Sequence record: PP391266.1
DNA from: Escherichia phage PJNS034
Reading direction: 5' to 3' (one strand)
DNA length: 64,000 bases
The notes beneath the pieces were generated by a model that saw only the letters and a list, made by a program, of their open reading frames with translations, did no database searches and was not told the origin of the DNA. Every line of letters starts with the position of its first letter. The stretch's first letter is position 1. The translations under genes were made by a program, and so were the position numbers. Of this stretch, positions 48,199 through 64,000 are shown one piece after another.

Positions 48199-48339
48199 GA
48201 TGGAAGCAGGGGTTGATTTGACCCCTGTTAAAAATGTAGGGCTGGTTAAGGCCAGCACCTCACACAATGGCGGCGTTAACTTATCTGAGAAAGAACGTTA
48301 TCGTCGTCGTGAATTATCTGGAGGGATTGCTGAGCATCA

Positions 48340-49059
48340 TTGCACACATCCCGGTTATCAAATCTTCCCTTCATAAGAGAGTACAAAGTGAAACGTCCTG
48401 AAACTGCAATCCGACCGTTTATGAAGTCCAGCATTGAGAAGCTGGAAGCTGGTCAACTGTTCTATGTTCGCAATGAGAAAGGTAGTGGTTATCGTCCTCG
48501 TTGCTTTGTTGGTGTGTTGCCTGATGGTAAGACGTATCAGTATCAGTCTTACATGAACAACGATATCTTTGATTCGGTTTATGAAGAACCGCATCTTGAC
48601 GACCAGCCTGTGTTTGTCCCGAAACCATTTGCAATGAAAATCATGCAACGTGGTAAGGCACTGGCTGAGGAAGTTGCTGAGGTATTCAGCGAGATTCCAG
48701 CGAACGAAATTCAACGTTCGAATCTGGATGAACTGTTCGACCGTCTGCCTGATGAAGTTATCGACTACGACGCTTATGAAGCGATTCGTCAGGCTGTACG
48801 TCGTTTGGGTTGGCAGGACGCATCAATTGTTCGTCGTCAGAATGGCGGCTGGATGGTTGATGATGAAGCGTTTGAATATATGTACAACGCTGTGACTGGC
48901 AAGGCTGAGCGTGAAGCAGCGGATACTACTGTGACGATTGCTCCGGTGGTTGATGTGGTTGATAGCTCGATTAGCCGACCAAAAGCTAATTCATTCGTTA
49001 AGAAGCTGAGCGGTTTCTTGTTTGGTAATTCTAAGCAAGGGGATAGCTGCGGCATCTAA
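48340..49059 (+). CDS. hypothetical protein (239 aa)
   Basis: ORF-track ORF. Confidence 0.3.
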   Translation: MHTSRLSNLPFIREYKVKRPETAIRPFMKSSIEKLEAGQLFYVRNEKGSGYRPRCFVGVLPDGKTYQYQSYMNNDIFDSVYEEPHLDDQPVFVPKPFAMKIMQRGKALAEEVAEVFSEIPANEIQRSNLDELFDRLPDEVIDYDAYEAIRQAVRRLGWQDASIVRRQNGGWMVDDEAFEYMYNAVTGKAEREAADTTVTIAPVVDVVDSSISRPKANSFVKKLSGFLFGNSKQGDSCGI

Positions 49060-49070
49060 ACGGTGATTGT

Positions 49071-49520
49071 ATGAGTGTTGCAGCAACAGCAGCATTTCTG
49101 TGTATGACGTTAGTTATTCACGAAGAAGCACGAGGCGAGCCTATCGCTGTGAAATACGAGGTAGGCCACGTGGTGAAGAATCGGATGGATTCACGCCAGT
49201 ATCCAGATACATGCGAGGCGGTTGTACTGCAACCCAAACAGTTCTCGTGGACAAAAACAAAAGGTGTACAAGATGAGTACGATTTGCGACAACGTTATTA
49301 TCGCGTCCTTGACTCGCTCGACACTCCCCAAAAGCGACTTTCGTTTGCTGCTTCTCAAAGAGCGGCAGATGAAGTGCTCAGTGGTAAGCATAAATCTCGA
49401 ATCGGAGCTGCGCTCCACTTCGTTACTCGCGGTCACTCAACTCATTGGGCGTCCAAATTTAAACGCCATACTATAGCAGGTATGGATTTCCTACTCCCAA
49501 GGAAGAAGAAAAATGCTTAA
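49071..49520 (+). CDS. SleB-like cell-wall hydrolase (endolysin candidate)
   Basis: HEEARGEP matches the conserved EARGE segment of the SleB/Hydrolase_2 family as recalled. Confidence 0.55.
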   Translation: MSVAATAAFLCMTLVIHEEARGEPIAVKYEVGHVVKNRMDSRQYPDTCEAVVLQPKQFSWTKTKGVQDEYDLRQRYYRVLDSLDTPQKRLSFAASQRAADEVLSGKHKSRIGAALHFVTRGHSTHWASKFKRHTIAGMDFLLPRKKKNA

Positions 49521-49716
49521 ATGGCTGTTCCGTCAGGGAAAAGACCTGAACTCTATTCTGGCTCCGCTTCGTAAGATGAAGCTGGAACTGGAAGAACGCC
49601 TCCACAAGAATGCTGATGATATTGTGGAAGCACAAAAGACCATCACCGAAAAGACCAAAGAAAATGGTTCTATTGGTGAAGCCCTGCAAACTGACCTGTT
49701 CAAATCTATCAAGTGA
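49513..49716 (+). CDS. hypothetical protein (67 aa)
   Basis: ORF-track ORF overlapping neighbours at both ends. Confidence 0.3.
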   Translation: MLKWLFRQGKDLNSILAPLRKMKLELEERLHKNADDIVEAQKTITEKTKENGSIGEALQTDLFKSIK

Positions 49717-50645
49717 GACAAACGACTATGATTCGCACCCCATTCGGTAACTTCTCTGGTAAGACTATCGGTATCACTGCTGGCGTGATTGTGTTCCTCT
49801 TCATCCTGCTGCTGTTGAAGCCGTTCAAAGTTATCTCTGACACCGAGGAGGGTGTGCAGAAGTCGTGGTCAGGCCAGATTTACAGTCAACCAATGACTGC
49901 TGGCTTCCACTGGATGAACCCGTTCAACAGCGTCACAACGTTCCCAATGACGTATAAGAACGTTCAACTGACAAATATCGGCGTTCCTGCTCAGGACGGT
50001 TTCAAAACCACGATGGATATCAGCGTAACTGGTAAATTTATTCCGGGCATGACCCCTGCTGTCCTGAAGTCTACCGGTAATTCTGAACAGTTTGCAGCAG
50101 TGCATATCTCTAAACGTATCACAGCTAAGCTGATTGATGCTGGTAAGAAGCACGCTGTAATCAGTCAGAACTTCTACGATGAAAGCACTCTGAACAAAGT
50201 TCGTGAAGAAATCATCGTAACGGCTAACCAAGAGCTTGAGCCTCTGGGTTGGAAAGTGACTGCGGTTGAAATCAGCAACATCGACCTGCCGGACGTTATC
50301 AAGAACGCTATCAGCGAGTCCAAGGTTCGTGCTGAACAGGTTAAGCGTCAGAAAGAATCCTTAGCAATTGCTGCTCTGAAAGCACAAGAGATTGAGAAAG
50401 TTGCAGAGTCTAACTCTAAAGCAACTATCCTCGATGCTGATGCTAACGAGTACAAAGCTAAGAAAGAAGCTGATGCTAAAGTGTATGCTGCTGCTCAGGA
50501 AGCAAAAGGTAACAAAGAAGTTGCTGCCTCTGTAACTCCTGCTCTGGTTGAATACATGAATGCTCAAGCTAAGATGAAGTGGGATGGTCAGATGCCAACA
50601 ACGAATGTTGGTTCTAACACTCCTGTCATCATGAGCATGAAGTAA
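49713..50645 (+). CDS. SPFH/band-7 (stomatin/prohibitin-like) membrane protein
   Basis: N-terminal hydrophobic anchor, then band-7-like core and Ala/Lys/Glu-rich coiled-coil tail. Confidence 0.55.
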   Translation: MRQTTMIRTPFGNFSGKTIGITAGVIVFLFILLLLKPFKVISDTEEGVQKSWSGQIYSQPMTAGFHWMNPFNSVTTFPMTYKNVQLTNIGVPAQDGFKTTMDISVTGKFIPGMTPAVLKSTGNSEQFAAVHISKRITAKLIDAGKKHAVISQNFYDESTLNKVREEIIVTANQELEPLGWKVTAVEISNIDLPDVIKNAISESKVRAEQVKRQKESLAIAALKAQEIEKVAESNSKATILDADANEYKAKKEADAKVYAAAQEAKGNKEVAASVTPALVEYMNAQAKMKWDGQMPTTNVGSNTPVIMSMK

Positions 50646-50653
50646 TATACTCA

Positions 50654-50677
50654 AGCCCATCTATATGGTGGGCTTTA
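50654..50677 (+). terminator. intergenic hairpin with conserved flanks (cassette copy 1)
   Basis: agcccatc...gatgggct stem, flanked by ATACTCAAG and CTTTATGAAT. Confidence 0.4.
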
Positions 50678-50706
50678 TGAATGTTACTTAAACGAGGAAC
50701 TAAAAG

Positions 50707-50844
50707 ATGTTTGAATTTATCGGTGATTGTATTGCAACAACACTCAAGGCTGGATTGGGTGTGGTATTCATTGTGCTTATCTGGGTTGGCTTCCAGATGG
50801 CATGGAACTGGACGCTTGACCGTATTCGCTGGGGATTCAAATGA
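50707..50844 (+). CDS. small membrane protein (45 aa), holin-like size
   Basis: Read by eye: MFEFIGDCIATTLKAGLGVVFIVLIWVGFQMAWNW; preceded by conserved leader. Confidence 0.3.
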   Translation: MFEFIGDCIATTLKAGLGVVFIVLIWVGFQMAWNWTLDRIRWGFK

Positions 50845-51014
50845 AAATTGAGTTCACTGGAATGAAAGGTGGTCAGCATTGCTTCAAGAAAGGGGCATTG
50901 ACTTACCGCTTTAGCGAGGACGAACTCGCACAAATCGTTGGCTATGCTGTACGTATGGCAAAGGCTAACAACAACAAAACCCTGAAACAAACTAACTCCA
51001 AAAAGGACAAATGA
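50841..51014 (+). CDS. hypothetical small protein (57 aa)
   Basis: Read by eye; ATGA overlap with previous ORF. Confidence 0.25.
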   Translation: MKIEFTGMKGGQHCFKKGALTYRFSEDELAQIVGYAVRMAKANNNKTLKQTNSKKDK

Positions 51015-51015
51015 A

Positions 51016-52413
51016 ATGCCAATCGTAACTATCGTAACTAACCGTAATAACTCTGAAACTAAGCGTGTTGAAGCTCAGTCAGGCGGTTGCTTCGGCTTTA
51101 TGGCATCAACCTCTTTCTTCCGTGACCATCGCCGCGATGTTGAGTACGTTGGTTATCATATGGAGTCATCCAATCAGGCTAAGCATTGTAGCGAAGTCTT
51201 TGATGGTAAGAATAAGTTATTCCCGTATCACAAATTCATGACCAACAATGAGTTCCATGCTATGTTCGGTGAGAACTTTGTGGATACTCGCCACGGTACT
51301 GTTAGTCACCACGGTTATGTGGTTGTTGAAATGCAGCCAGAAGGTTTTGAAGGTGTTGGTATTCCACAGGACATGTTCATCTCTGGTCTGTTCACTGCTC
51401 GTCAGTTGAGCTATGGCCTGTATCCGAACATGCGTGACACCATTAAGAAAGGTGTTCACCCAATGATGGCTTACGTTATCAGTGAGCTGATTCAGTGGGA
51501 AGATACAAGCACTGCTCTTGCTGCACAGCTTCGCTGGAAACGTCAGCGTGTTAGTTCTTCCAACATCGACAGCACAGCGTTCGGTAAGAAGAACCTGATT
51601 AACATGTTCAACTGCCTGAAAGGTAAGAAGCATGTGCCTTACTTCGGTCACGAAGGTGGCATCATTCAGCGTGGTGGTTACAAGCGTGACCATAACTTCA
51701 ACACCTCTGCTGATAATCGTCCGGGTATTTATCAGACAATCACGGCGAACATGAACACTTCATCTGCACCGATTGAAGCTGATGAACCAATCATCAACCC
51801 GTTCCACTTCTCTCCAGCTTACCTCGGTCATGTACTGAATGAACTGCTGGGTTGTGAAGTATTTGATATGTCGAAGATGCTTGACCGTCAGGGTATGAAA
51901 GTTAACCCAAAATCTTCGGTGTACAAGTTCTACCAGATGCGTGATGTGAAGTTCCGTAAGTCATATCGAAAAGGTGATATGGTTGAAGTTCGTGCTGATA
52001 TGTTCGGTGCTGACCAGTACATCAACCGTCACAACACTCCGCTGAGCAATCTGGTTTCTTATCGTCATGGTGAGAACAACACCACTAACCGTGTTGGTTT
52101 CGTACCGGTTAAGACTCATGTTGAGAAGGTCAGCGTGAAGAACGGTGTGGAAAGCGTTAAGCTGGAAAACGGTTGCTGGGTATCTCCACGTTACATCAAA
52201 ACTGCTGGTACTCATGCGGTTGAAGGTGTGAAGATTCAGGCAGGTACTGACACTCCGGTAAATGCACTGTATACAGTTCGTAATTCAAAAGAAGTGTATG
52301 CTGCACGTACCTTTGACTTGTTCGAAGCATCTGTTCGACTGATTCAGGTTACTGGTAACAGTATCGGTCAAGAGATTATCAAGCGTCCACGTGACCTGAT
52401 TCCAGCGCTCTAA
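51016..52413 (+). CDS. hypothetical protein (465 aa), first large gene of the ligase cluster
   Basis: Long ORF with no motif I can assign; contiguous with the amide-ligase genes. Confidence 0.5.
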   Translation: MPIVTIVTNRNNSETKRVEAQSGGCFGFMASTSFFRDHRRDVEYVGYHMESSNQAKHCSEVFDGKNKLFPYHKFMTNNEFHAMFGENFVDTRHGTVSHHGYVVVEMQPEGFEGVGIPQDMFISGLFTARQLSYGLYPNMRDTIKKGVHPMMAYVISELIQWEDTSTALAAQLRWKRQRVSSSNIDSTAFGKKNLINMFNCLKGKKHVPYFGHEGGIIQRGGYKRDHNFNTSADNRPGIYQTITANMNTSSAPIEADEPIINPFHFSPAYLGHVLNELLGCEVFDMSKMLDRQGMKVNPKSSVYKFYQMRDVKFRKSYRKGDMVEVRADMFGADQYINRHNTPLSNLVSYRHGENNTTNRVGFVPVKTHVEKVSVKNGVESVKLENGCWVSPRYIKTAGTHAVEGVKIQAGTDTPVNALYTVRNSKEVYAARTFDLFEASVRLIQVTGNSIGQEIIKRPRDLIPAL

Positions 52414-52567
52414 TGGGTATTAATAAGACCATGACTACAGCGTTCTTTATCCTCGCTGTAGCATCGCCAATACTTGCCTGTTTCAATACAACAGCAGCAG
52501 CATTTAGTGCTGGCATGGCTGTCTTCGCAATGCTTTGTTATGTTGTAGCGAACGGTTGATATACTCA

Positions 52568-52595
52568 AGGTCATTCACAAAGTGAGTGGCCTTTA
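52568..52595 (+). terminator. intergenic hairpin with conserved flanks (cassette copy 2)
   Basis: aggtcattcac / gtgagtggcct stem, flanked by ATACTCAAG and CTTTATGAAT. Confidence 0.4.
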
Positions 52596-52645
52596 TGAAT
52601 ATCATCTGCCAATAACGGCAACTTAAACTGAACGAGGAAACTACT

Positions 52646-53455
52646 ATGACGATTCGCCTGATTACTCTTGGTGCTGACCCTGAAACTATTGTTGCTCGCA
52701 ACGGTGTTCCAACTCACGCTATTGGTCTTATCGGCGGTACTAAGGAAGAACCACGTAAGATTATCCGTGGTGGTCGTGAAGTTGGTGCGGTGCAGGAAGA
52801 TAATGTCCTGTATGAGTTCAACATCATGCCACACGATACTCGTCAGGGATTCATTGACAACATTCAGCAGATGTTGGAAGTGGGTCGTGAGATTCTGGGT
52901 GATGGTTACGAAATCACTAATAAGACTTCTCACATCTTCTCTGATGAAGACATGGCTCATTTCCCTGACTCAGCGTTTATCTTCGGTTGTGAACCGGATT
53001 TCTTCGCTGGTAATGGTGAGATGAATCCGAAGCCTGCTGCACCGTGGCCGGGTCTGCGTACCGCAGGTGGTCATGTTCACTTCGGGTTCGATGAGCGTGT
53101 AGTTCGTGATGATGAGAATGTTCGTTCTCTGATTCAACTGTGCGATATGTATATGGCGTTGCCGTCAATGCTTCTGGACACTGACGACCTGCGTAAAGAA
53201 CTGTATGGTAAGGCCGGTGCATTCCGTCCGAAAGCATATGGTGCTGAATATCGTACACTGTCAGGTTTCTGGATTCATAATCCTGAAAATACTGGCTTCG
53301 TGTTTGACCAAGCGCAGAAAGCGTATGATGCGTTGGCAACTGGTCTGGGTCGTGAGATGTTGGCACGTTTCCCATACGAACTGGTTGTCGATATCATCAA
53401 CAGCAATGACCGTGGACGTGCTGAACGTGCCCTGAAAGTTATGCAGGTTGCATAA
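52646..53455 (+). CDS. amidoligase-like protein, divergent (269 aa)
   Basis: GADPETIV and TAGGHVHFGF parallel the GLELELE and STHVHLD segments of the downstream amidoligase-like ORF; preceded by conserved leader. Confidence 0.4.
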   Translation: MTIRLITLGADPETIVARNGVPTHAIGLIGGTKEEPRKIIRGGREVGAVQEDNVLYEFNIMPHDTRQGFIDNIQQMLEVGREILGDGYEITNKTSHIFSDEDMAHFPDSAFIFGCEPDFFAGNGEMNPKPAAPWPGLRTAGGHVHFGFDERVVRDDENVRSLIQLCDMYMALPSMLLDTDDLRKELYGKAGAFRPKAYGAEYRTLSGFWIHNPENTGFVFDQAQKAYDALATGLGREMLARFPYELVVDIINSNDRGRAERALKVMQVA

Positions 53456-53637
53456 TGGAAGAAGGTCTGCTGATTAGCTGGGTTGAATCTCCAGCGAACC
53501 GTAAGACCAAGACTCATACCCTCTTCTTCGAAAGCCTGGACGAGGGTTATGAGTTCATGGCCTCTAAAAGTTGTGTAATTCAAGTACAACGCATTCCACT
53601 GGTGAGAAAGAATGGCGAAACTGGTAACGGTAAATAA
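53455..53637 (+). CDS. hypothetical protein (60 aa)
   Basis: ORF-track ORF, start overlaps previous stop. Confidence 0.25.
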   Translation: MEEGLLISWVESPANRKTKTHTLFFESLDEGYEFMASKSCVIQVQRIPLVRKNGETGNGK

Positions 53638-53803
53638 CGCAGATAAAACTGTAACTCGTCGTGTCTTTATGGACAACGAAGAGGGTATCATGTGGGCAGT
53701 TGACCAAGCCCGCACAGCACTGTCAGTCGTGACTGATGATGTGGAAGTGGTCGAGGCTTCCAGCCGTAAAGGTTGGGAAGGTCATATCGCATGTGATTGC
53801 TAA
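53612..53803 (+). CDS. hypothetical protein (63 aa)
   Basis: ORF-track ORF. Confidence 0.25.
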   Translation: MAKLVTVNNADKTVTRRVFMDNEEGIMWAVDQARTALSVVTDDVEVVEASSRKGWEGHIACDC

Positions 53804-53827
53804 TTTAAACTGAACGAGAGAACTAAA

Positions 53828-54436
53828 ATGTCAATCAATATGTCAAGTGGTGATTTACGTCTGTATTGGGGTGGGTGTTATGCACCTGTTGCATGGGATG
53901 CAGCAGATAGTGGCGTAGCAACACTGGTAATTCACGACGTTCGTGTGATAAATCCAATGTCACGTGACTACACCGAAGCACGAGTTCAAGGTGAACTATT
54001 CTTCATTCGTAATGGAGAAGAGGCTCGTGGTAATTTTGAAGGTCGTATGTCTGACCTCCTCGGTGATGGGTTCACCACTCCTCAACGCAATATCGGTTAT
54101 ATCCGTGTTCACGGTCAACCGTATTGGATTACCTTCAAACGTCGTCGTACAAATCGTAAAGGCATCACCAATGACCGTCTGGCTGTGTATGTAGCTGGGC
54201 ATCGTGGTGAAGCAGGTTTGAACTTCGGTAGTGATGTGTTGTGTCGTCTGTATGCAACCTTTGATGGTCGTATCTCTGATGATTTCTGTATTCATCAGAA
54301 CATGATTCATTATAAAGGTGTGGTTGTCGGACGTTATGAGCGTCACAATCGTATTGTATTAGCTGAACGTTTTGCGTATCTTAGCTGGTCGCTGGAACGT
54401 ATCGGTGGTTACGACGTAACGGTGGAGGTTGAGTAA
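53828..54436 (+). CDS. hypothetical protein (202 aa) inside ligase cluster
   Basis: Preceded by conserved TTAAACTGAACGAG leader; stop overlaps amidoligase start. Confidence 0.4.
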   Translation: MSINMSSGDLRLYWGGCYAPVAWDAADSGVATLVIHDVRVINPMSRDYTEARVQGELFFIRNGEEARGNFEGRMSDLLGDGFTTPQRNIGYIRVHGQPYWITFKRRRTNRKGITNDRLAVYVAGHRGEAGLNFGSDVLCRLYATFDGRISDDFCIHQNMIHYKGVVVGRYERHNRIVLAERFAYLSWSLERIGGYDVTVEVE

Positions 54437-55260
54437 TGATTATTGCTGACATTTTAGGGCATGGTCGTGGGTCGGATGTTGTTGATACGCATCCGTTGAT
54501 TGTTGGTCGAGGCCGTGTAGGACTCGAATTAGAACTGGAGAATATGCCAAATGCTCGACAAGCTGCTGGTTGGACAGTTACTGGTGACGGTTCTCTGCGT
54601 AATAGCGGCGTGGAATATGTACTCCGTGGTGCTCAGGGAGGTATGGAGTTATTTAATTCGATACTTTCTCTGGAAGAAGCACTCATGGCACATCAATGTG
54701 ATGCTAACCTTCGCTGCTCTACTCACGTTCACCTTGATATACGTCGGCTCACTGTGGCTCAACTCAAGCGTTTACTTCTGGCTTATACAGTCTTTGAGCC
54801 ATTAATCTTTGAGTTGTCCGGTGCGCATCGTCGTACTAACAACTTCTGTCCGTCGTTTAGTTTCGCTCAGCAACAAATTCGTAAGCTGAGTAACAACTGG
54901 CATCATGATGGTGAACGATTCCTTGCTCGTATTGTGGAAGGTCGTGACCGCCAATCCAGTGATAAGTATTCAGCACTGAATCTGGTTCCAATCTTCACTC
55001 AGGGTTCTGTAGAGTTCCGTGGTGCAGAAGCGAAGCCAAGTGCAGGTAAGATGATTCGTCTGGCTAACCGTATTCTAAGTCTGTATGACTTAGCGGTTAA
55101 CTCTGATATGAATCAGTCTGATGCTGAGTTCATTAACTCACTGGCGAACCTTGATGTTCAACAGGCATTGATGGGTACGATTCCTCGTGACTTCGAACTC
55201 AGCGAAGAACTGGTGAATGAAGGACGTGTCTTAGCGTTCGATATTATCTCTCTGGGGTGA
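54436..55260 (+). CDS. amidoligase (Amidoligase_2 / carboxylate-amine ligase-like) protein
   Basis: VGLELELE...DGSLRNSGVEYV...STHVHLD resembles the putative amidoligase family (glutamine-synthetase-like fold) as recalled. Confidence 0.5.
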   Translation: MIIADILGHGRGSDVVDTHPLIVGRGRVGLELELENMPNARQAAGWTVTGDGSLRNSGVEYVLRGAQGGMELFNSILSLEEALMAHQCDANLRCSTHVHLDIRRLTVAQLKRLLLAYTVFEPLIFELSGAHRRTNNFCPSFSFAQQQIRKLSNNWHHDGERFLARIVEGRDRQSSDKYSALNLVPIFTQGSVEFRGAEAKPSAGKMIRLANRILSLYDLAVNSDMNQSDAEFINSLANLDVQQALMGTIPRDFELSEELVNEGRVLAFDIISLG

Positions 55261-55261
55261 C

Positions 55262-55477
55262 ATGAGCTGGAACGAACGAGAGTATCGTAAACCAAAGTTG
55301 GGCACTGTATGTGTCCACTTCGAACCTTCGTATAAGTCAACCTTTGGAAGTACGAAGAAGTTCCCTAACGCATCGTTCTACTTGAGTACGAACGGTGTAA
55401 TCATCATCCGTGATATGGATGGTGACAACATCTGTGCATACCCTGAAGGTGTGTGGCTGAATGTTGAAATGAAGTGA
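55262..55477 (+). CDS. hypothetical protein (71 aa)
   Basis: ORF-track ORF; followed by a clean terminator hairpin. Confidence 0.3.
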   Translation: MSWNEREYRKPKLGTVCVHFEPSYKSTFGSTKKFPNASFYLSTNGVIIIRDMDGDNICAYPEGVWLNVEMK

Positions 55478-55485
55478 TTAACTCA

Positions 55486-55508
55486 AGCCCTTCTTCGGGA
55501 GGGTTTTA
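55486..55508 (+). terminator. Rho-independent terminator (cassette copy 3)
   Basis: 8-bp stem agcccttc/ggagggtt with ttcg loop, then tttta; preceded by AACTCAAG. Confidence 0.55.
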
Positions 55509-55563
55509 TGGTAATCATTACCACAAACTATTGAAACTAACTATTGAACTTGAGGAAAGTATT

Positions 55564-57156
55564 ATGTGCGGAATCGTTGGAATTATGCGTGGCGTTATGA
55601 CTGAAGGTATGGTGGACATGTTTGAACAACTGCTGTATGCAGATGTGTTCCGTGGCCCGCACTCCACTGGCGTCTATCGTGTTAATAAAGATGGTCAATC
55701 AGGGTTGTATAAGGATGCAGTACCTGCGTCTTTATATCTTGGCTCGAAAGGCTGGGATGATTTACGTGGGAATCTGAATGGAACTGCTGGTCATCAGGCA
55801 CTGTCTCAAGTTTATGTTGGTCATAACCGTTGGGCAACTGTAGGTGCAGTTAACGCTGTGAACTCACATCCATTCAAGTGCGGTAACATCACGATGGTAC
55901 ACAATGGTACTGTTGCGAAGTGGCGTTTGAATGACCACCTGAAGTATGACGTTGATAGTCATGCGGTGTGTGCGATGTTGGATTCACATGGTCTGGCTGA
56001 AACTCTGAAAGTTCTGGATGGTAAGTTTACTCTGGTGTGGCATGACGCATCTGATAACACCATGAACTTTATCCGTAATGCAGAACGTCCTCTGCACATG
56101 GTTGAGTTCACTGATGGTGGTTGGGCGTTTGCATCAGAAGGTGAGATGTTAACGTGGATTAATGGTCGTCGTAAGACCCCGTTTGGTATTAAACGTGCTT
56201 TCGAACTGCCAGTTGGCTTCCATCATAAATTCCAGTTATCCGCGAGCAAAGTAGAGCTTGCGGAGGTCGTTAAGTACGAACTCCCAAAGTTCACCAGCTA
56301 CGCCAGCAACAGCACGTATTATCCAAACCGAAGCTCAGTCGCAAGCAGCAGCGCAAGCTCAACAAACTCAGAAAGCGCAACCGCTAGACGTGTGCGTCTG
56401 ATGAAAGAGTGGGGCATTGACGTTGGAGACCGCAAAGATGTAGAGAACATGATTGTGTCTCTGGATAACATCGCGTTCACAGCGTACTCAACCAATGCAG
56501 CATCAGGTCGTATTGATGCAGACGCATGGGGTTACGATGAAGCTGTTGATGCCTGTGATGCTGGTCATATGGAAATTGACTGTAAGCGTGGTGGTAAAAC
56601 TGAAGATGTTCAGGTAACAGTTTACGGTGTTGATACTGTTAAGTGGAAAGACAACTACTCTCAGGGCGACCGTCTGTACGGTAAGATTGACAGTGTGTTT
56701 GAATCCACTGAGCATGGCAAGACTCGTCTTCGTATCACTTTGAAACCACTGACTCTGTGTACTGAGTTGGCTGATGGCGTTGAAGCCTTTAATGAGAAAG
56801 TGTTCCCGCTCCTCATTAAGAAAGAGGCCGAAAAGGTTGATGCCGACAAAAGTAAATCAGATGTTGCAGGAAGCACTGGAAGCGCAGGAACTGCAACTGG
56901 TCAGGGAACTCAGTTATCGGTTGTAGTGGATAACACTGCAAAAAAGCCGGAAGGTACGGACTCATCAAGCGGCTCGCCGAACTTGTTCAACATGTCCGCA
57001 ATTCCAATGAGTCTTAAAGACTTGCGTGAAGACAAGCTGAGTTGTGCTTGGTGCGGAAATGCAATCCACGAACATAACTACGAAATGTCTGATATGTTCT
57101 TTAAATCTCACATCTGCCCAGATTGTGCCAAGGAGTTACCGGGTTATGGCGACTGA
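55564..57156 (+). CDS. class II (Ntn-type) glutamine amidotransferase-like protein with C-terminal zinc ribbon
   Basis: Begins MCGIVGI (Cys directly after Met, hallmark of N-terminal nucleophile amidotransferases); Ser-rich linker; C-terminal CAWCG...CPDC; start moved to internal ATG with GAGG upstream. Confidence 0.7.
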   Translation: MCGIVGIMRGVMTEGMVDMFEQLLYADVFRGPHSTGVYRVNKDGQSGLYKDAVPASLYLGSKGWDDLRGNLNGTAGHQALSQVYVGHNRWATVGAVNAVNSHPFKCGNITMVHNGTVAKWRLNDHLKYDVDSHAVCAMLDSHGLAETLKVLDGKFTLVWHDASDNTMNFIRNAERPLHMVEFTDGGWAFASEGEMLTWINGRRKTPFGIKRAFELPVGFHHKFQLSASKVELAEVVKYELPKFTSYASNSTYYPNRSSVASSSASSTNSESATARRVRLMKEWGIDVGDRKDVENMIVSLDNIAFTAYSTNAASGRIDADAWGYDEAVDACDAGHMEIDCKRGGKTEDVQVTVYGVDTVKWKDNYSQGDRLYGKIDSVFESTEHGKTRLRITLKPLTLCTELADGVEAFNEKVFPLLIKKEAEKVDADKSKSDVAGSTGSAGTATGQGTQLSVVVDNTAKKPEGTDSSSGSPNLFNMSAIPMSLKDLREDKLSCAWCGNAIHEHNYEMSDMFFKSHICPDCAKELPGYGD

Positions 57157-57439
57157 TAAAATTGTAATTCGTATGCCGAAAGACGACATTGAATGTGAGC
57201 GGAAATATCCGTTCACTTACTTCATGAATGCAGCGCTGCGTGGTATGCAGCGTCGCTACTCTGAACAAGCGTCGGCAAAGTTTGGTAGTGAAGTTGAGAT
57301 TCTATTCCCAACTGCATTATCAAAAATGATTCATGACCACATGGTCACTCTGTATCAACAGGAAGGATTCGAACTCGCTGAAGAAGATTTCGAAGACTCC
57401 GAACAATACCGCAAATATCTGAAACTAATTAAGGGCTAA
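57146..57439 (+). CDS. hypothetical protein (97 aa)
   Basis: ATG overlapping the amidotransferase stop; ORF-track frame. Confidence 0.35.
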   Translation: MATDKIVIRMPKDDIECERKYPFTYFMNAALRGMQRRYSEQASAKFGSEVEILFPTALSKMIHDHMVTLYQQEGFELAEEDFEDSEQYRKYLKLIKG

Positions 57440-57444
57440 AACAA

Positions 57445-58938
57445 ATGCTGCGTATCTTCAACTACAACAACGGTTCTCAAGGTCTGGGTGCTCTGCGTGA
57501 ACATGTAGAGCCATTGATTCGTGAGATGAATACTCATCGTGGTTTCCGTAACATTCGTCCGGTTATGGGTAGCGAGAATGGTTCTGCTCGTCTGTTTCAG
57601 GCGACTAACCGCTTCATTATGAACTGGGGTTCTTCGCAACCCCTGAACACTGATGAAAGCAACTTCGTTCTCAACAAACCGGAAGCTGTTGGTTTAGCAA
57701 CTCATAAACTCCGCTTCTTCCAACATGTTCACCAGTGGAACCAAGAGAAGATTGCTCAGGGTGTGAATGGCCTGACTGTTCCGATTCCTGAGTGGACAAC
57801 TTCTCGTGATGAAGCTCAGACTTGGGCAGGGCATGACCATCTGGTTTATGCCCGTCAACGTCTGCAAGGTCATAGCGGTGAAGGTATCGAAGTATACGGT
57901 ATCAATCAGGTTGTTGAACGTGCTCCACTGTACACCAAAGGCATCATCGGTGCTCGTCGTGAGTATCGTGTTCATGTCATTGCTGGTCAGGTGGCACTGG
58001 TTCAGTTGAAGAAACGCCGCAATGGTGGTGAGGCTGTGGGCAATGGTAATGACCATGTTCGTAACCTCGGCTCTGGTTGGGTGTATGCAGTAAGTGATGC
58101 TCGTCCATCACCAGTCGTATTGAGTGCAGCACAGAATGCAGTTCGTGCTCTGGGTCTGGACTTTGGTGCGGTAGACATTATCGCTAAAGGTCGTAAAGGT
58201 CAGGAGCGTGAGTGCTGGGTGTTGGAAGTTAACACTGCACCGGGTCAGCGTGGTGATACTACTGTGACGCTGTATGCTCGTGCTGTTGCATCGGCATATG
58301 CAATCTGGATGAATCGTGATAGCGTTGACGTCCGTGATTTAGGAGGTGTCAAAGCTGCATGGGAAACACTTCCTTGGCTGAACGATGAAACCTTCCTTGC
58401 TCTGATGCGTGATGAAGGTGCAGATGGTTCGGTACTTCTGCGTTCTCAGCGTGAAACTCAGGCAGCAGAGGCAGAAATGCCTAACACTGACGATGATGTG
58501 GCGGCAGATGAAAACTTTGCCCTTCCTGCTGATGAACTGACACCTGCTCGTGCAACCTCTGGTGCTCATGTAGTTCACACTGGTACTCGTTGGGTTGATG
58601 TAGAAGCAGCACCTCAAGTTCGTGCTGAGCCTGTACGTCGTCGTGACGGTGAGCCAATGCCGTTCAATGGTAATCCATTCGATGCACGTATTCGTCGTGA
58701 ACCTGCACCACGTCCTGCACCTGAACCGGTTGTAATGCCAGAACGTCGTGTCATGTTGTCTCGTCTGGGACAGAATGACCCACAGAACGAACAGTTCGTG
58801 GTATTCACATGGAACGGTCGTCGTGAAGTCGGTGTAGTCAATACTCGTCTGGGTGTTGTTTACATGGCTGGTAGCGAAGTTCAACTTCCACTGGCTCAGG
58901 TTGATTTGATTGCGGTAGTTGATACCGAAATTCGTTAA
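57445..58938 (+). CDS. ATP-grasp ligase (RimK-like) with ~200-aa C-terminal extension
   Basis: YRVHVIAG and GLDFGAVDII...VLEVNTAPG match the RimK/GshB-type ATP-grasp C-terminal motifs as recalled; C-terminal half Pro/Arg-rich, unassigned. Confidence 0.7.
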   Translation: MLRIFNYNNGSQGLGALREHVEPLIREMNTHRGFRNIRPVMGSENGSARLFQATNRFIMNWGSSQPLNTDESNFVLNKPEAVGLATHKLRFFQHVHQWNQEKIAQGVNGLTVPIPEWTTSRDEAQTWAGHDHLVYARQRLQGHSGEGIEVYGINQVVERAPLYTKGIIGARREYRVHVIAGQVALVQLKKRRNGGEAVGNGNDHVRNLGSGWVYAVSDARPSPVVLSAAQNAVRALGLDFGAVDIIAKGRKGQERECWVLEVNTAPGQRGDTTVTLYARAVASAYAIWMNRDSVDVRDLGGVKAAWETLPWLNDETFLALMRDEGADGSVLLRSQRETQAAEAEMPNTDDDVAADENFALPADELTPARATSGAHVVHTGTRWVDVEAAPQVRAEPVRRRDGEPMPFNGNPFDARIRREPAPRPAPEPVVMPERRVMLSRLGQNDPQNEQFVVFTWNGRREVGVVNTRLGVVYMAGSEVQLPLAQVDLIAVVDTEIR

Positions 58939-58967
58939 TTGCTTTAGGGTATTCTTCGGAGTACCCT

Positions 58968-59189
58968 ATGTCGATTGAACCGAACGAGGAATATATGAAA
59001 GTATGGGTAGTTATGTTCCAAGAGTATGACCTAGCCGAAGTGCTGGAAATCTACTCGAAGGAAGAAGATGCTATAGCACATCGTCAGGCTGAAATTGATA
59101 AGAGCTTGTCATACGCTAAGAAGTGGAATGTCAAACCACACCCTGCGCTCGAACAGTTTTATACAATTCACGAAAAAGAGGTAAAGTAA
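58968..59189 (+). CDS. hypothetical protein (73 aa)
   Basis: ATG lies at the 3' edge of a hairpin whose loop carries GGAG. Confidence 0.3.
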   Translation: MSIEPNEEYMKVWVVMFQEYDLAEVLEIYSKEEDAIAHRQAEIDKSLSYAKKWNVKPHPALEQFYTIHEKEVK

Positions 59190-59596
59190 TGAGCAATTTA
59201 GTCGCTGTATATGGTTCCCTTCTGTCTGGTCTGCATAACCACGGTGTTATGGAACGTGCAAAGGGTAAGTTGATTGGTGCTGGTGAATCGGTGCAGAACA
59301 TCAACATGTATTCTCTGGGTGGTTTCCCTTCCATCTCTCTGGAACACTCCAGCCACGGTAATACAATTCGTGTTGAAGTATATGAAGTACCGGATGAAGG
59401 TATGCGTCCTCTGAATGCACTGGAAGGTTATCGTGGTGAAGATGGCCCGAACTTCTACAACCGCACTCCAATCAAAATTAAGATGGACAACGGTGATATG
59501 CTGGAAGCGTTCATCTATCACATCGACGAAACTCAATCCCATCCGGTTATTGATGGTGACTGGCGTAAATATCTGGAACAGCGAGGTCGTGCATAG
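59189..59596 (+). CDS. gamma-glutamyl cyclotransferase-like (AIG2/GGCT fold) protein
   Basis: N-terminal VAVYGSLL matches the YGS(L/N) signature; conserved Glu in LEGYRGE; start moved to internal ATG with AGAGG upstream. Confidence 0.6.
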   Translation: MSNLVAVYGSLLSGLHNHGVMERAKGKLIGAGESVQNINMYSLGGFPSISLEHSSHGNTIRVEVYEVPDEGMRPLNALEGYRGEDGPNFYNRTPIKIKMDNGDMLEAFIYHIDETQSHPVIDGDWRKYLEQRGRA

Positions 59597-59808
59597 TGGA
59601 ATATGATGCAATCCTTGAAGACCCAAGACTCTCACCAATTAGTAAGAGCAAGAAGGTCGCCGTAGGTTATATCTACGAAGATAAGAAAGGCCGCTGGCCT
59701 GATGGAACTTTCATTCGTACCTCTCTGATTGAAAAGGAAATCAAAGAAGGGAATGATGTTTACATCAAAACAATGAACACTGTGTATAAGGTGCGTGAGA
59801 ATGCCTAA
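59596..59808 (+). CDS. hypothetical protein (70 aa)
   Basis: ORF-track ORF. Confidence 0.3.
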   Translation: MEYDAILEDPRLSPISKSKKVAVGYIYEDKKGRWPDGTFIRTSLIEKEIKEGNDVYIKTMNTVYKVRENA

Positions 59809-60220
59809 TGTTGTAATTTTCCAGAAGCGTAATGGTCTGTATGTTCAATTCAATGAACGTGGTGAGCGTATTGCAACACCGTACATTCATCTGGCTAAAC
59901 GTTACGAAGCTGGTGAGGAAACTCGTCGTGTCATTACGCAGTTGAATGCGAATGGTCATGAGTTCTCCGCTGTAGTGGTAACTAATCCGCCGTATTACAG
60001 TGAACGTGGTGGCTGGCACCTGACGTCAGTGAAGGAAGCTAAGAAATTAGCTGAAGCTCTGGGAATTAAGAATGTATCCCGTTTCATTAACCAAATCCCA
60101 CACATGCGAGCATTAGCCGATGCTGGGAAGATTGAGGAGTTAAACGAGTATGTCTTATCCATCAAATCTAGTCGGGTCGCAATCGGTTATCCTAACTCGT
60201 ATACCTACTACAACGGTTGA
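59795..60220 (+). CDS. hypothetical protein (141 aa)
   Basis: ORF-track ORF; contains VVTNPPYY but lacks other methyltransferase motifs. Confidence 0.3.
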   Translation: MRMPNVVIFQKRNGLYVQFNERGERIATPYIHLAKRYEAGEETRRVITQLNANGHEFSAVVVTNPPYYSERGGWHLTSVKEAKKLAEALGIKNVSRFINQIPHMRALADAGKIEELNEYVLSIKSSRVAIGYPNSYTYYNG

Positions 60221-60396
60221 GTTTCTCAGAGACTTAGCTGATGTATGTAACAAACATGGGATGGGCATTCACCCGTCCCACGAACCACTTGAAGTGTACA
60301 AATTTGACCGGATGGATTTTCACTTTGACTTCCGGTTCTCTAACTCCAGTGAATTGGTAGATAAATTTCTACCGTCCCTTTTCCCAATCCAAGGTA

Positions 60397-60855
60397 ATGA
60401 TAATGAATCTGTCTAAAATCGAAAACAAAGCTGACTTCCTGCGTCGTGTCTCTGCTGGTAAGTTCATTGTTCGTAAGCGTGGTGTGAGTGTTCTGGGCTT
60501 CTATAAGGTTCGCTCTGTCACTGAGCGTCATATCATCACTGATACCCGTACCTTTACCTATCAGGAGCTGTTCAACTTCGCTAAGGTGTTCCTGCTGACT
60601 GGCGAGATTGCACCGAAGGAAGAGACAGCACCTCAATTCAAGAAAGATGCGAAGTTCATCCTGTGGGCACCGAAGTCAAACAAGCCACCTCGTGTAGTGC
60701 TGGAAGATGGTATCGACGCTGCCCTGCATGTAGCGAATGATATGGCTCGTCGTCACGGTGGCAAGTTCTACGTTGCCCATCTGGTCGCTGAGGCTGAGAA
60801 GAAAGTAACTCGTCGTGTTATCGAAGATGTTACTCAAACCTCTCGTATGCTGTAA
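60397..60855 (+). CDS. hypothetical protein (152 aa)
   Basis: ORF-track ORF. Confidence 0.35.
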   Translation: MIMNLSKIENKADFLRRVSAGKFIVRKRGVSVLGFYKVRSVTERHIITDTRTFTYQELFNFAKVFLLTGEIAPKEETAPQFKKDAKFILWAPKSNKPPRVVLEDGIDAALHVANDMARRHGGKFYVAHLVAEAEKKVTRRVIEDVTQTSRML

Positions 60856-61022
60856 GGAGCCATCATGCTACCATTATCTTGCCTCCTAATTGGAGGCTTG
60901 ATTGGCTTCTTTATCAGCGGTATGATTGTCTCCTCTGTCTACAAGCGTCAGATTCGTGATGGCTATGTGGAAATCAAAGGTGTGGTCTACCGTACCTATA
61001 AAGCAAGCAAGTGAGGTAAACA

Positions 61023-62765
61023 TTGTCCCAAGAGTATCAAGGTGGTAAACGATTAACGCACGACGGCCCATGTCCAACATGTCGTTCTCATGGACGTGAC
61101 AGAACTGGCAACCACTTACAGTTCTGGGAGAATGATAAAGGCGAGCATTGGGCTTTCTGTAACCGATGCGGTCACTACGAAGACGATGGAAACAAACTCG
61201 GCTCGTATGAAAAGAAAGAACGTCGTGAGTTAAGCGATGAAGAAGTAGCGGAGGTGTTGTCAGAGATTGCCGAACTTCCGTATCAAGCGTTGGGTAGTCG
61301 TGGTATCACATTAGCAGTTGCCGAACGTTATGGTGTTCGTGTTGGATTAAGTCCACAGGACGGACAAACTCAAGTCTCTCACTTCTATCCGAAGATGAAG
61401 GGCAAGGATATCACTGGTTACAAAGTACGTCAGTTGAATCCGAAGTTCTTTTATCATCAAGGTCGTGGTGGTGGATGTGACTTGTTTGGTATGCAGCAAG
61501 CGTTGTTGAAGGATGTGTTTAAACATTCGTTGTATATCTTCGAAGATGAGTTGTCGGCAATGTCTGGTTTTCAGGTATTGAAACAATTCGCAAAAGAGGG
61601 TTACAAGAACTACTCACCAGCGGTTGTTTCATTGCCAGATGGAACGAAATCAGCAGCACGAGTGTGTGGTCAGAACCGTGAGTTCATCCAGAGTTTCAAA
61701 GAAGTTGTTGTCTGTATGGATAACGACAAAGCTGGTGATGATGCGGTTGAAGTGATTCGTTCACTTTATCCTGACAAAGTAAAAGTGGTACGACTTCCGC
61801 TGAAAGATGCGAACGATATGCTTATGGCAGGTCGTGAAATGGAGTTGTATCAGCACTTACGATTCAATGCCAAGACTGAGACGCCAGACGGTGCAGTATC
61901 CATTATGGATTGCATTGAAGATGCGTTGAAGAAACCGGAATGGGGTTTATCATTCCCGTGGCAGGGTCTTACGAACTTAACTTATGGCATTCAGTACGGT
62001 GAGATTATCGCTGTTGGTGGTGGTGTAGGTTTGGGTAAGACCTTGATTGGTCATGAGTTGTGTGCTCACTTGATTAATGTCGAGAAACAACGAATCGGCA
62101 TGTTCATGCTGGAGGAAACTGTTGGCAATACCATCAAGAACATTTCTGGTAAGGTTGCTAATATTCCTTTCCATCGCCCAGATGTTGAGTATGACCCTCA
62201 AACCCTTCGTGACGTAGCAATGTCGTTTGGCGACAATGTAGCGTTGTGGCAGAACAAAGGTCAGAACTCATGGGAGAACATTAAGGCATGTATGCGGTTC
62301 TGGGCTGTAGTTGAGGGTCGTAAGATTATGATTCTCGATAACATCACAGCGTTAACTGCTCACTTAACTCCAAGTGAAATCAACACGGAAATCAGTAAGA
62401 TTGCATCTGAACTTGCTGGCCTGTGTGACGAGTTAGGTATTGCATGTTTTGTATTCTCTCACTTAAATCCACCGTCAGGTGGTAAGCCACACGAAGAAGG
62501 TGGTGAAGTTAAAGAGGTTCAGTTCACTGGTTCACGAGCGTTGATGCGTTGGTGTCAGGTGATTCTTGGCTTCGAACGTAACAAATATGCAGAAGGGGAT
62601 GCAAAGAACATCTCACGCATTAAGTTACTGAAAGACCGTAAGTATGGTCAGTCTGGTTATATTCATACACGGTTCTATCCTGAAACTGGTCGTTTACTCG
62701 AAGTGACTGAACAAGAAGCTGGCGAGTACGAACAGACAGAGGAAGATAAAGACCGTTCATTCTAA
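61023..62765 (+). CDS. primase-helicase (T7 gp4-like)
   Basis: N-terminal zinc-binding CPTC...CNRC, central primase-like region, helicase Walker A GGGVGLGKT and Walker B-like MILDNIT; start read as TTG. Confidence 0.85.
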   Translation: MSQEYQGGKRLTHDGPCPTCRSHGRDRTGNHLQFWENDKGEHWAFCNRCGHYEDDGNKLGSYEKKERRELSDEEVAEVLSEIAELPYQALGSRGITLAVAERYGVRVGLSPQDGQTQVSHFYPKMKGKDITGYKVRQLNPKFFYHQGRGGGCDLFGMQQALLKDVFKHSLYIFEDELSAMSGFQVLKQFAKEGYKNYSPAVVSLPDGTKSAARVCGQNREFIQSFKEVVVCMDNDKAGDDAVEVIRSLYPDKVKVVRLPLKDANDMLMAGREMELYQHLRFNAKTETPDGAVSIMDCIEDALKKPEWGLSFPWQGLTNLTYGIQYGEIIAVGGGVGLGKTLIGHELCAHLINVEKQRIGMFMLEETVGNTIKNISGKVANIPFHRPDVEYDPQTLRDVAMSFGDNVALWQNKGQNSWENIKACMRFWAVVEGRKIMILDNITALTAHLTPSEINTEISKIASELAGLCDELGIACFVFSHLNPPSGGKPHEEGGEVKEVQFTGSRALMRWCQVILGFERNKYAEGDAKNISRIKLLKDRKYGQSGYIHTRFYPETGRLLEVTEQEAGEYEQTEEDKDRSF

Positions 62766-62777
62766 GAGGTAAGTTAT

Positions 62778-63080
62778 ATGTCCAATGGTATTACATTAGA
62801 AGTTCATGACTGGCACAAAGATGGTACTCGTCGTCCATTCTTCGGAAATAATGATAAGGGTTACTTCTGGCTTCACCTGTATTATGCTTCTGGTGTGCAA
62901 GCATCTTTGGGTGGCTCGATTGAACACTACTTCATGAAAGAAGATGAAACTACCAAAGCAACCTCGAAGATGAATGTTGCTATCCGTGGTAATGATGGTA
63001 AGTTTATCTCTTACCGTAAACTTCAGAACACTGACCATGAACATGTGTTTGAGGGGATTGATGCACTACCAAACATTTGA
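62778..63080 (+). CDS. hypothetical protein (100 aa)
   Basis: ORF-track ORF between primase-helicase and exonuclease-domain gene. Confidence 0.3.
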   Translation: MSNGITLEVHDWHKDGTRRPFFGNNDKGYFWLHLYYASGVQASLGGSIEHYFMKEDETTKATSKMNVAIRGNDGKFISYRKLQNTDHEHVFEGIDALPNI

Positions 63081-63609
63081 TGCGTTCGATATTGAGACGG
63101 ATAACTTATATCATGGAGTTACCCGTCTTTGGTGCAGCAGTCACATCGACGTTGATAGCGGTTGTGTTACTGAGTATCGTCCTGAATGTTATCAAAGCGT
63201 TGGTGAGCACTTATTACGGTGTAAACGAGACAACGTTGTTGTGGTCGGTCATAACATCGTAGACTTCGACTTACCAGCGATTGAGAAAGTGTTGGGTGTG
63301 GATTTGGATGGTATTGCATTCATTGATACACTCGTCATTTCTCGTGCTCTGGAACCTGACCTCGAAGGAGGTCATTCCTTGAAGATGTGGGGTAAACGTC
63401 TTGGTATCTTAAAAGGTACTTATGGGGAAGATGAAGGGGAAGCAGCATGGGACAAGTTCTCAGAAGACATGATGGAATACTGTACACAGGACGTTAAGGT
63501 CACTGTTGCACTGGTTAAACATCTGCTTGAGGATTTAGCAGGTATCCCACGGAACGAATGGTACAAGGTTGTACAAGTTTATAATTCACCACTTAAAGGT
63601 AAACGTTAA
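63061..63609 (+). CDS. DNA polymerase 3'-5' proofreading exonuclease domain, separately encoded
   Basis: Exo I-like FDIETD and Exo II-like VVGHNIVDFD; ends in a stop overlapping the dUTPase start; start taken at internal ATG with GAGG upstream. Confidence 0.75.
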   Translation: MHYQTFDAFDIETDNLYHGVTRLWCSSHIDVDSGCVTEYRPECYQSVGEHLLRCKRDNVVVVGHNIVDFDLPAIEKVLGVDLDGIAFIDTLVISRALEPDLEGGHSLKMWGKRLGILKGTYGEDEGEAAWDKFSEDMMEYCTQDVKVTVALVKHLLEDLAGIPRNEWYKVVQVYNSPLKGKR

Positions 63610-64000
63610 TGTCTGCAAAAATTAAAGTTGAAGTAATCGGTAATGCACCTGTAGCAATGTCTCCGGGTGCGAATGGCATGGACGTTAAGGCAGCGAAGAC
63701 TGTCGTAATCCCGGCAGGTGGTATTGCTCTGGTTCCAACTGGAACTCGTATTCAAATCATTGACGAGGATGTGAATGACCCAACTAACGACGTTACAATC
63801 GCTACGCTGTCTCTTCCACGTTCCTCGCTTGCCAAGTCTGGTCTTATGCTGGCTAACAGTGTTGGCCTTATCGACACCGACTATCAAGGCGATATCGGAT
63901 TCATGTTCTTCAACCGAACTAGTGAAGATATTACAGTCGAGAAAGACACTCGGTTAGGTCAGCTTCTGTTTACTCTTGCAGTCAAGCCAAGTATGTTTGA
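63609..64000 (+). CDS. dut: dUTPase (partial, runs off window end)
   Basis: Read by eye: motif III-like GLIDTDYQGD and motif IV-like RLGQLLF; no stop before window end. Confidence 0.7.
   Translation, partial: MSAKIKVEVIGNAPVAMSPGANGMDVKAAKTVVIPAGGIALVPTGTRIQIIDEDVNDPTNDVTIATLSLPRSSLAKSGLMLANSVGLIDTDYQGDIGFMFFNRTSEDITVEKDTRLGQLLFTLAVKPSMF

Follow-up and report, generated by a model that had tools for sequence, protein, structure and literature searches.

A gamma-glutamyl cyclotransferase-type protein of Escherichia phage PJNS034 is encoded in an amide-ligase cassette and, in other viral loci, is fused to one of the ligases

Why should a phage encode, at the end of a run of genes for enzymes that form amide bonds, a protein from a family whose characterised members break gamma-glutamyl amide bonds? 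The question arises at positions 59189-59596 of a 64,000-nt stretch of Escherichia phage PJNS034 (record PP391266.1), hereafter the window, which covers almost the whole of the 65,715-bp genome record. An initial annotation, made from the letters of the window, had proposed that this open reading frame (ORF) specifies a protein of the gamma-glutamyl cyclotransferase (GGCT) or AIG2 fold. Our analysis confirms that the gene encodes a genuine gamma-glutamyl cyclotransferase-type protein, the similarity being far beyond chance, and leads us to predict that the protein is an active gamma-glutamyl(amine) cyclotransferase serving as the bond-breaking member of a phage amide-ligase pathway, a reading to which we assign a probability of roughly 0.55. 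The gene and its ribosome-binding site are as follows.

59176-59181, plus strand: Shine-Dalgarno sequence AAGAGG, 7 nt 5′ of the GGCT ATG, read from the letters
59189-59596, plus strand: GGCT-fold enzyme (GGACT/AIG2-like) of 135 amino acids, with YGSL at residues 8-11 and the putative catalytic Glu79

The reading frame runs from an ATG at 59189 to a TAG at 59594-59596, exactly where the initial annotation had placed it. Its ATG overlaps the stop codon of a 73-codon ORF upstream (TAATG, with one A common to both), and its TAG overlaps the GTG start of a 70-codon ORF downstream (TAGTG, with one G common to both), so the gene is embedded in an operon. A longer, GTG-initiated ORF from 59123, present in the mechanical ORF list, was rejected as the GGCT start because homologues align from the ATG. 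The product is 100% identical to a PJNS034 protein labelled 'hypothetical protein'.

Comparison of this product with Pfam revealed a match to the GGACT family (PF06094) over profile positions 1-120 of 120, with a score of 70.4 bits, the cut-off being 22.8 (E = 2.7e-19), and PHROG 2520, 'gamma-glutamyl cyclotransferase', matched it with E = 2e-37. The sole competing Pfam family was AH_C (PF21986), the allophanate-hydrolase C-domain, with a score of 33.5 bits. Across an alignment of 36 homologues, in which identity extends down to about 32%, residues Y8, G9, L11, N17, P47, L78, E79, G80, Y90, Y110 and W125 are invariant. The YGSL signature and the conserved glutamate on which the initial annotation had drawn are therefore both to be found in this alignment, the former at residues 8-11 with its Y, G and L unchanged throughout, and the latter as E79. 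When the phage protein and human GGACT were each aligned to the family profile, Y8-G9-S10-L11 corresponded to Y7-G8-T9-L10 of the human enzyme, and N17, E79, Y90 and Y110 corresponded to N16, E82, Y88 and Y119, with E82 being the residue that is changed in the deposited E82Q mutant of human GGACT (PDB 3JUD). Because the glutamate is present and invariant, and because the GGACT profile clearly outscores that of AH_C, the other small-barrel family, the fold assignment stands.

A structural model is in keeping with this assignment. The AlphaFold2 model, which was built on the homologue alignment and has a mean predicted local distance difference test score (pLDDT) of 94.7, was compared with the PDB by Foldseek and superimposed on GGACT structures, with template-modelling (TM) scores of 0.69-0.76 to PH0828 of Pyrococcus, GGACT (1VKB, 3JUB, 3JUC, 3JUD) and YkqA, and with E-values of 4e-8 to 2e-6 for 1V30, 1VKB, 2QIK and 3JUB/3JUC. 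Human GGCT (2RBH) was a weaker match, and the C-domains of allophanate hydrolase and urea amidolyase were also among the structures returned. A ChaC-type assignment was rejected: ChaC2 (6KY1, 6K95) and the yeast structure 5HWK gave TM scores of 0.41-0.46 with E-values of at least 3e-3, and the Pfam scan of the protein contained no ChaC match. Searching the PDB with the family profile recovered YtfP of E. coli, YkqA of B. subtilis, PH0828 and the mouse and human GGACT enzymes, with YtfP as the best solved-structure match (E = 1.9e-21). YtfP (UPF0131, PDB 1XHS) resembles the phage protein in its size and its terminal GDW motif, but at the position of the invariant LEGY Glu of the phage family it carries an Arg, and no ligases are encoded with it. 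Human and mouse GGACT have in common with the phage GGCT the fold, the Y-G-S/T-L loop, the Asn, the two Tyr and the Glu, at about 22-26% identity, whereas the long C-terminal tail of GGACT is absent from the phage protein, which adds the conserved GDW motif (W125).

As a catabolic enzyme, GGACT stands alone, outside any ligase operon. In contrast, GGCT is the last of five co-directional enzyme genes at 52646-59596 in PJNS034, which together form a cassette of about 7 kb, or about a tenth of the genome. Carboxylate-amine ligases of the gamma-glutamylcysteine synthetase (GCS) and glutamine synthetase (GS) superfamily, together with an ATP-grasp ligase, do adjoin the GGCT gene, in agreement with the context described by the initial annotation. 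The genes upstream of GGCT are the following.

52646-53455, plus strand: COOH-NH2 ligase type 2 (phiEco32-like carboxylate-amine ligase), 269 amino acids; PF14395, E = 4.6e-10; covered over its full length by PHROG 3815, 'COOH.NH2 ligase', E = 1.7e-85
53828-54436, plus strand: conserved 202-residue protein between the two ligases; PHROG 4877
54436-55260, plus strand: Amidoligase_2 ligase, 274 amino acids; PF12224, E = 5.7e-12; PHROGs 7469 and 7631, 'amidoligase enzyme', E about 1e-60
55564-57156, plus strand: class-II, N-terminal nucleophile (Ntn) glutamine amidotransferase domain protein, 530 amino acids; GATase_6, E = 3.8e-18; PHROG 4736, E = 3.6e-94
57146-57439, plus strand: DUF7195 protein, 97 amino acids, overlapping the amidotransferase stop; PF23825, E = 9e-7
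57445-58938, plus strand: RimK-like ATP-grasp ligase, 497 amino acids; PHROG 2599, E = 2.3e-75
58968-59189, plus strand: ORF of 73 amino acids, whose membership of the cassette is positional only

The order of these genes is identical in phiEco32 (phi32_86 to phi32_75) and LUZ24 (gp16 to gp24), where, as in PJNS034, a COOH-NH2 ligase is followed by an unknown gene, an amidoligase, an amidotransferase, a small ORF, an ATP-grasp ligase, GGCT and a primase/helicase. The GGCT homologues phi32_77 of phiEco32, gp22 of LUZ24 and gp39 of Pseudoalteromonas phage HP1 are 37-45% identical to the PJNS034 protein, and GGCTs of the phiEco32/LUZ24 type have the same active-site motifs. In phiEco32, LUZ24 and many RefSeq phages the gene is already annotated as a gamma-glutamyl cyclotransferase, whereas the PJNS034 gene and that of Pantoea phage TacPo2 are labelled hypothetical.

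How general this association is can be judged from a wider set of loci. A single-sequence search of viral contigs with GGCT gave no match; a profile-based search of IMG/VR identified 80 loci with GGCT relatives, from which we extracted all ORFs, and iterated hidden Markov models were built from the proteins of the window. Components were counted in the 40 loci in which GGCT is flanked by at least 8 kb on either side. On the same strand as GGCT, an ATP-grasp gene occurs in 38 of these loci, Amidoligase_2 in 37, and the COOH-NH2 ligase and the amidotransferase in 35 each, and at least one ligase is present in 39. Ten loci lack any partner, nine of them being on contigs that are cut within 1 kb of GGCT. 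With gene orders coded by one letter per cassette enzyme (G for GGCT), such that phiEco32 and LUZ24 read LAQRG, at least six complete orders are observed: LAQRG in 24 loci, GRLQA in 22, GQLAR in four, QLARG in two, and LGRQA and GLAQR in one each. Thus, the five-gene set has been kept through rearrangement and is not a frozen inherited block. Among cultured phages, 270 records contain GGCT and 310 contain the COOH-NH2 ligase by tblastn, and the counts of the two genes agree closely by genus, as for phages of Escherichia (93/93), Aeromonas (11/11), Proteus (8/8), Salmonella (7/7) and Cronobacter (6/6). The co-occurrence with amidoligase genes that the initial annotation had put forward for examination in other phages is therefore very strong, as the 37 of 40 loci with Amidoligase_2 demonstrate, and it is reinforced by gene fusions.

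These fusions are the new point here. In each of two contigs, L029 and L030 (9965-11446 in both), GGCT and the COOH-NH2 ligase type 2 are encoded in a single ORF of 493 amino acids, with an acidic linker between the two domains (DEDDEMDEDEEMDEDE in L029). A second form, the protein P0036, has 443 amino acids, is 51% identical to the first and is encoded on a 60-kb contig from another source. Both fusion lineages retain the YGSL and L-E-G/S motifs, and in L029 the genes for the ATP-grasp ligase, the amidotransferase and Amidoligase_2 are still found downstream of the fusion. Reduced arrangements occur as well. Two loci, L082 and L084 (7764-9405), have a minimal pair in which Amidoligase_2 (Pfam E = 8e-56) is directly followed by GGCT and the remaining three enzymes are absent; a MoxR-type AAA ATPase is encoded nearby in L084. 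Locus L023 (5360-9056) has a rare solitary GGCT with no ligase within 8 kb, located directly after a gene for nicotinamide/nicotinate phosphoribosyltransferase (NAMPT) and a gene resembling that for phosphoribosyl pyrophosphate (PRPP) synthetase.

The cassette itself has a history in the literature, and the novelty implied by the initial annotation was overstated, since a GGCT-ligase cassette was described by comparative genomics in 2009 and 2013. In their passages on the cassette, later papers present it as a module that putatively modifies peptidoglycan, crediting Iyer et al. 2009 and Hardies et al. 2013, and suggest as its benefit that it might prevent superinfection (PMC5498523, PMC11318856, PMC6256558, PMC10580990, PMC11945000). 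One such passage lists phiEco32, 7-11, PA11, tf, MR299-2, LUZ24, PaP3, CW02 and RIO-1 as carriers (PMC5498523), and the corresponding passages of papers from 2023 and 2025 state that the functions of the cassette remain to be explored (PMC10580990, PMC11945000). Our literature search found no experimental characterisation of the cassette, the two primary proposals being known through the papers that cite them. The PJNS034 GGCT is accordingly an unannotated member of a cassette that has been recognised for more than 15 years, and it is not new in kind.

What might such a protein do within the cassette? Because the active-site residues that it has in common with GGACT are all retained, the reaction of the family is the most economical reading, with the chemistry inferred from the characterised GGACT and BtrG enzymes. 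GGCT would bind an L-gamma-glutamyl amide bearing a free alpha-amino group, with the YGSL loop holding the glutamyl moiety and Glu79 acting as the general base; intramolecular attack of the alpha-amine on the gamma-carbonyl would then yield 5-oxoproline and a free amine. The most likely outcome is the release of these two products from a gamma-glutamyl amide that is made or processed by the cassette. The near-obligate linkage and the fusions point to a substrate made or handled by the cassette enzymes, the COOH-NH2 ligase type 2 being the most direct choice, and a gamma-glutamyl intermediate is the most likely candidate. Judged by their Pfam names and by how Iyer et al. 2009 is titled, the COOH-NH2 ligase type 2 and Amidoligase_2 are members of the carboxylate-amine ligase group, to which gamma-glutamyl-forming enzymes also belong. 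These two GCS-type ligases and the RimK-like ATP-grasp ligase could together form up to three amide bonds, the class-II amidotransferase domain might either supply ammonia or, like EgtC, cleave a gamma-glutamyl amide by hydrolysis, and GGCT would trim or deprotect within a pathway expressed from the strand that carries the replication genes.

The pairs EgtA/EgtC and PuuA/PuuD have comparable parts, in that a ligase of the GCS or GS type adds a gamma-glutamyl group and an amidotransferase-like hydrolase removes it. Unlike the phage cassette, however, these systems employ hydrolysis, with no cyclotransferase and no ATP-grasp partner, and the resemblance of the phage amidotransferase to EgtC is a weak match (E = 6e-6) that falls far below the family cut-off. 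The pathway to butirosin provides another comparison. There, the GGCT-fold enzyme BtrG removes a gamma-glutamyl protecting group that has been put on by the ATP-grasp ligase BtrJ, and the gamma-glutamylated intermediate is bound to the acyl carrier protein (ACP) BtrI. BtrG and the phage GGCT can be likened by their logic, as GGCT-fold proteins that occur beside an ATP-grasp amide ligase, and a scheme of protection, elaboration and deprotection as in butirosin fits the parts list of the phage cassette. The ACP, the decarboxylase and the aminoglycoside genes of the butirosin pathway are not present in the phage cassette, and searches of the cassette ORFs with Pfam, PHROG and NCBIfam revealed no carrier-protein domain. 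Butirosin therefore offers an analogy for the cassette, which lacks a carrier protein, and not a pathway to which it belongs.

The initial annotation had offered two possible roles, in which a gamma-glutamyl protecting group would be added and later removed, or a host gamma-glutamyl compound would be trimmed, and each is plausible. A more specific version of the former, which we regard as tentative and rather unlikely, would have a GCS-type ligase add a transient gamma-glutamyl handle, the other ligases and the amidotransferase elaborate the handled molecule, and the coupled GGCT strip the handle as 5-oxoproline, the product being a hitherto undescribed phage small molecule or a reversible gamma-glutamyl mark on a host macromolecule.

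Several considerations weigh against assigning GGCT the bond-breaking step of a ligase pathway. We found no solved or biochemically characterised close relative of any enzyme of the cassette, so their substrates cannot be inferred by homology, and the literature search returned no published experimental study of the cassette. YtfP, the closest solved relative of GGCT, has likewise not been characterised, and Arg replaces Glu at its catalytic column. Fusing a gamma-glutamyl ligase to the enzyme that destroys its product would set up a futile cycle at the expense of ATP, unless further steps came in between. Finally, the rare GGCT of locus L023 has no ligase nearby, and for this reason a stand-alone activity of GGCT on a host compound is conceivable.

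The host gamma-glutamyl compound from which such an activity would free an amine might be, for example, a gamma-glutamyl-polyamine of the Puu/Pau pathway, a gamma-glutamyl dipeptide or a murein-recycling fragment, and the fused or adjacent ligase would use the amine as its nucleophile. GGACT-type enzymes accept many gamma-glutamylamines, which favours this idea, as does the existence of solitary GGCT genes in some phages such as that represented by L023, and the fusion of GGCT to a ligase would suit release of an amine followed by its ligation as well as it suits protection and deprotection. The near-obligatory link to three ligases and an amidotransferase nevertheless exceeds what scavenging would need, and the cassette includes no transporter or polyamine-related gene; we consider this explanation unlikely. 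We view as rather doubtful the peptidoglycan module that citing papers, in their passages on the cassette, credit to Iyer et al. 2009 and Hardies et al. 2013, according to which the ligases would add unusual murein linkages, GGCT and the amidotransferase would degrade the gamma-D-Glu stem peptide, and the altered surface would block superinfection. Peptide-stem chemistry would suit three amide ligases, and D-Ala-D-Ala ligases are also matched by the ATP-grasp profile. D-Glu of the murein stem, however, has its alpha-amino group acylated by L-Ala, whereas GGCT chemistry needs a free alpha-amine, which makes direct action of GGCT on the stem chemically objectionable. Scans with Pfam, PHROG and NCBIfam, moreover, detected no domains related to Mur ligases, transpeptidases or lipid carriers in the cassette. 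Comparative genomics is the sole footing of this proposal, and the passages on the cassette in the 2023 and 2025 papers still leave its functions to be explored.

Two further explanations give GGCT a different target or a different activity. In one, an amidoligase would join the gamma-carboxyl of glutamate to a lysine or other amine of a host or phage protein, the ATP-grasp enzyme may lengthen this tag as RimK does, and GGCT would remove a terminal gamma-glutamyl by cyclisation. Attachment through a gamma-carboxyl is known from pupylation, where it is carried out by the GS-fold ligase PafA. The ATP-grasp ligase of the cassette is RimK-like, as this scheme would have it, and 'peptide modifications of proteins' are named in the title that Iyer et al. 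2009 carries. The paired Amidoligase_2 and GGCT genes of L082 and L084, like the adjacent pairs that are mentioned for Clostridium prophages in a passage of one paper (PMC11318856), resemble a ligase together with its means of reversal. No target protein is evident, however, and in the 202-residue cassette protein no fold can be recognised that would single it out for modification. Characterised GGACT, for its part, acts on free gamma-glutamyl-epsilon-lysine and not on intact proteins, and we judge reversible protein tagging to be very unlikely. In the other explanation, the GGCT fold would have a different activity or no cyclotransferase activity, acting like an allophanate-hydrolase C-domain or in a binding or scaffold role. 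The secondary Pfam match to AH_C, the Foldseek matches to allophanate hydrolase and urea amidolyase C-domains and the uncharacterised state of YtfP would be consistent with such a role, but the GGACT profile matches the full length of the protein with double the AH_C score, and the Glu and the pocket residues in common with GGACT are invariant in 36 diverged homologues and are kept in the fusions. A loss or change of activity therefore seems to us extremely improbable. A role in DNA hypermodification was dropped because no cassette protein resembles known base-modification enzymes, and PADLOC defence models gave no match for eight proteins in or beside the cassette.

A predicted cyclotransferase is of wider interest given that the cassette, although rearranged again and again, has stayed together among at least 270-310 sequenced phages. 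Their hosts include Escherichia, Pseudomonas, Salmonella, Proteus, Aeromonas, Vibrio and marine bacteria, therapeutic LUZ24-like phages are among them, and the product and purpose of the cassette have been in question since the prediction of 2009. GGCT is the most tractable point of entry, as it is small and soluble, has a predictable reaction and can be matched with a clear inactive control (E79Q). PJNS034 infects E. coli, and genetics and metabolomics should therefore be straightforward. The fusions show which ligase to pair with GGCT, and the minimal pairs of Amidoligase_2 and GGCT provide a further starting point. Should the transient-handle scheme be true, no protecting-group or writer-eraser chemistry of its type would have been shown in a virus before.

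The remaining proteins of the cassette vary in how closely they follow their relatives. Amidoligase_2 of PJNS034, at 274 amino acids, is shorter than its counterparts of 367 and 391 amino acids in phiEco32 and LUZ24, whereas the ATP-grasp ligase, at 497, is longer than those of phiEco32 (397) and LUZ24 (294), with the TacPo2 homologue having 486. The ATP-grasp protein has no Pfam match, and when it, the COOH-NH2 ligase and Amidoligase_2 were searched as single sequences against solved structures, no match was obtained. The ATP-grasp family profile (A3) matched cyanophycin synthetase, alpha-L-glutamate ligase/RimK, LysX and Ddl in the PDB, with E-values of 3e-9 to 1e-7. Residues 330-497, approximately, form a C-terminal extension of about 170 amino acids that is rich in Pro, Arg and Glu and has a small beta-rich segment at its end. 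The amidotransferase begins MCGIVG, placing the nucleophilic Cys directly after Met, and has weak NCBIfam matches to the N-terminal domains of GlmS, AsnB, EgtC and PurF. It too is extended, by about 290 residues (approximately 240-530) that match no family and occupy the position at which classical amidotransferases have an acceptor or synthase domain. This extension comprises a low-complexity stretch rich in Ser, Ala and Thr and a C-terminal CxxC...CxxC zinc ribbon, which has a weak HVO_0758-like zinc-finger match at residues 490-524. The DUF7195 gene lies between the amidotransferase and ATP-grasp genes in eight loci of the LAQRG type, including phi32_82 of phiEco32 and gp20 of LUZ24. The 73-residue ORF just upstream of GGCT has no Pfam or PHROG match and no homologue in 84 loci. 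The GTG-initiated ORF of 70 amino acids downstream of GGCT (59596-59808, plus strand) matches several PHROGs of unknown function (best E = 1.8e-13) and, weakly, DUF6957; it is present in TacPo2 and undetected in the other loci.

Megablast of a 7.7-kb region that includes the cassette matched Pantoea phage TacPo2 only, all of whose genes are labelled hypothetical; it has 79% DNA identity to PJNS034, and its GGCT is 76% identical. The cassette lies on the plus-strand arm of the genome, together with numerous uncharacterised ORFs and with genes for a primase/helicase and the exonuclease subunit of a DNA polymerase, and the neighbours that bear on its limits are listed below.

49713-50645, plus strand: SPFH/Band-7 family protein, upstream of the cassette; Pfam E = 2e-15; PHROG 200, 'lipoprotein'
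51016-52413, plus strand: ORF of 465 amino acids with no family match, upstream of the cassette
61023-62765, plus strand: primase/helicase, 3′ of the cassette; PHROG 239, E = 3e-174

The position beside the primase/helicase in the replication arm is repeated in loci L002 and L003. The SPFH/Band-7 gene and the 465-residue orphan, which distinguish the lineage of PJNS034 and TacPo2 (about 65 kb) from phiEco32 and LUZ24, were rejected as members of the cassette; they are lineage-specific, being shared only with TacPo2 among the 84 loci. A scan of positions 47000-63900 yielded 13 sigma-70-like promoter matches, fewer than the 26.4 ± 6.3 found in shuffled sequence, and no convincing intrinsic terminator between cassette genes, with nothing above chance. 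This picture fits long polycistronic transcription or the use of non-sigma-70 promoters, as in phiEco32-like phages. The minus strand carries the structural arm, with tail proteins, the portal (36839-39016) and the terminase (39029-40525). Within the window there is also, on the minus strand at 12307-17139, an ORF of 1610 amino acids whose residues 1451-1608 resemble a baseplate-hub/tail-lysozyme PHROG and whose remainder is unrecognisable; it probably encodes a large internal virion or ejection protein.

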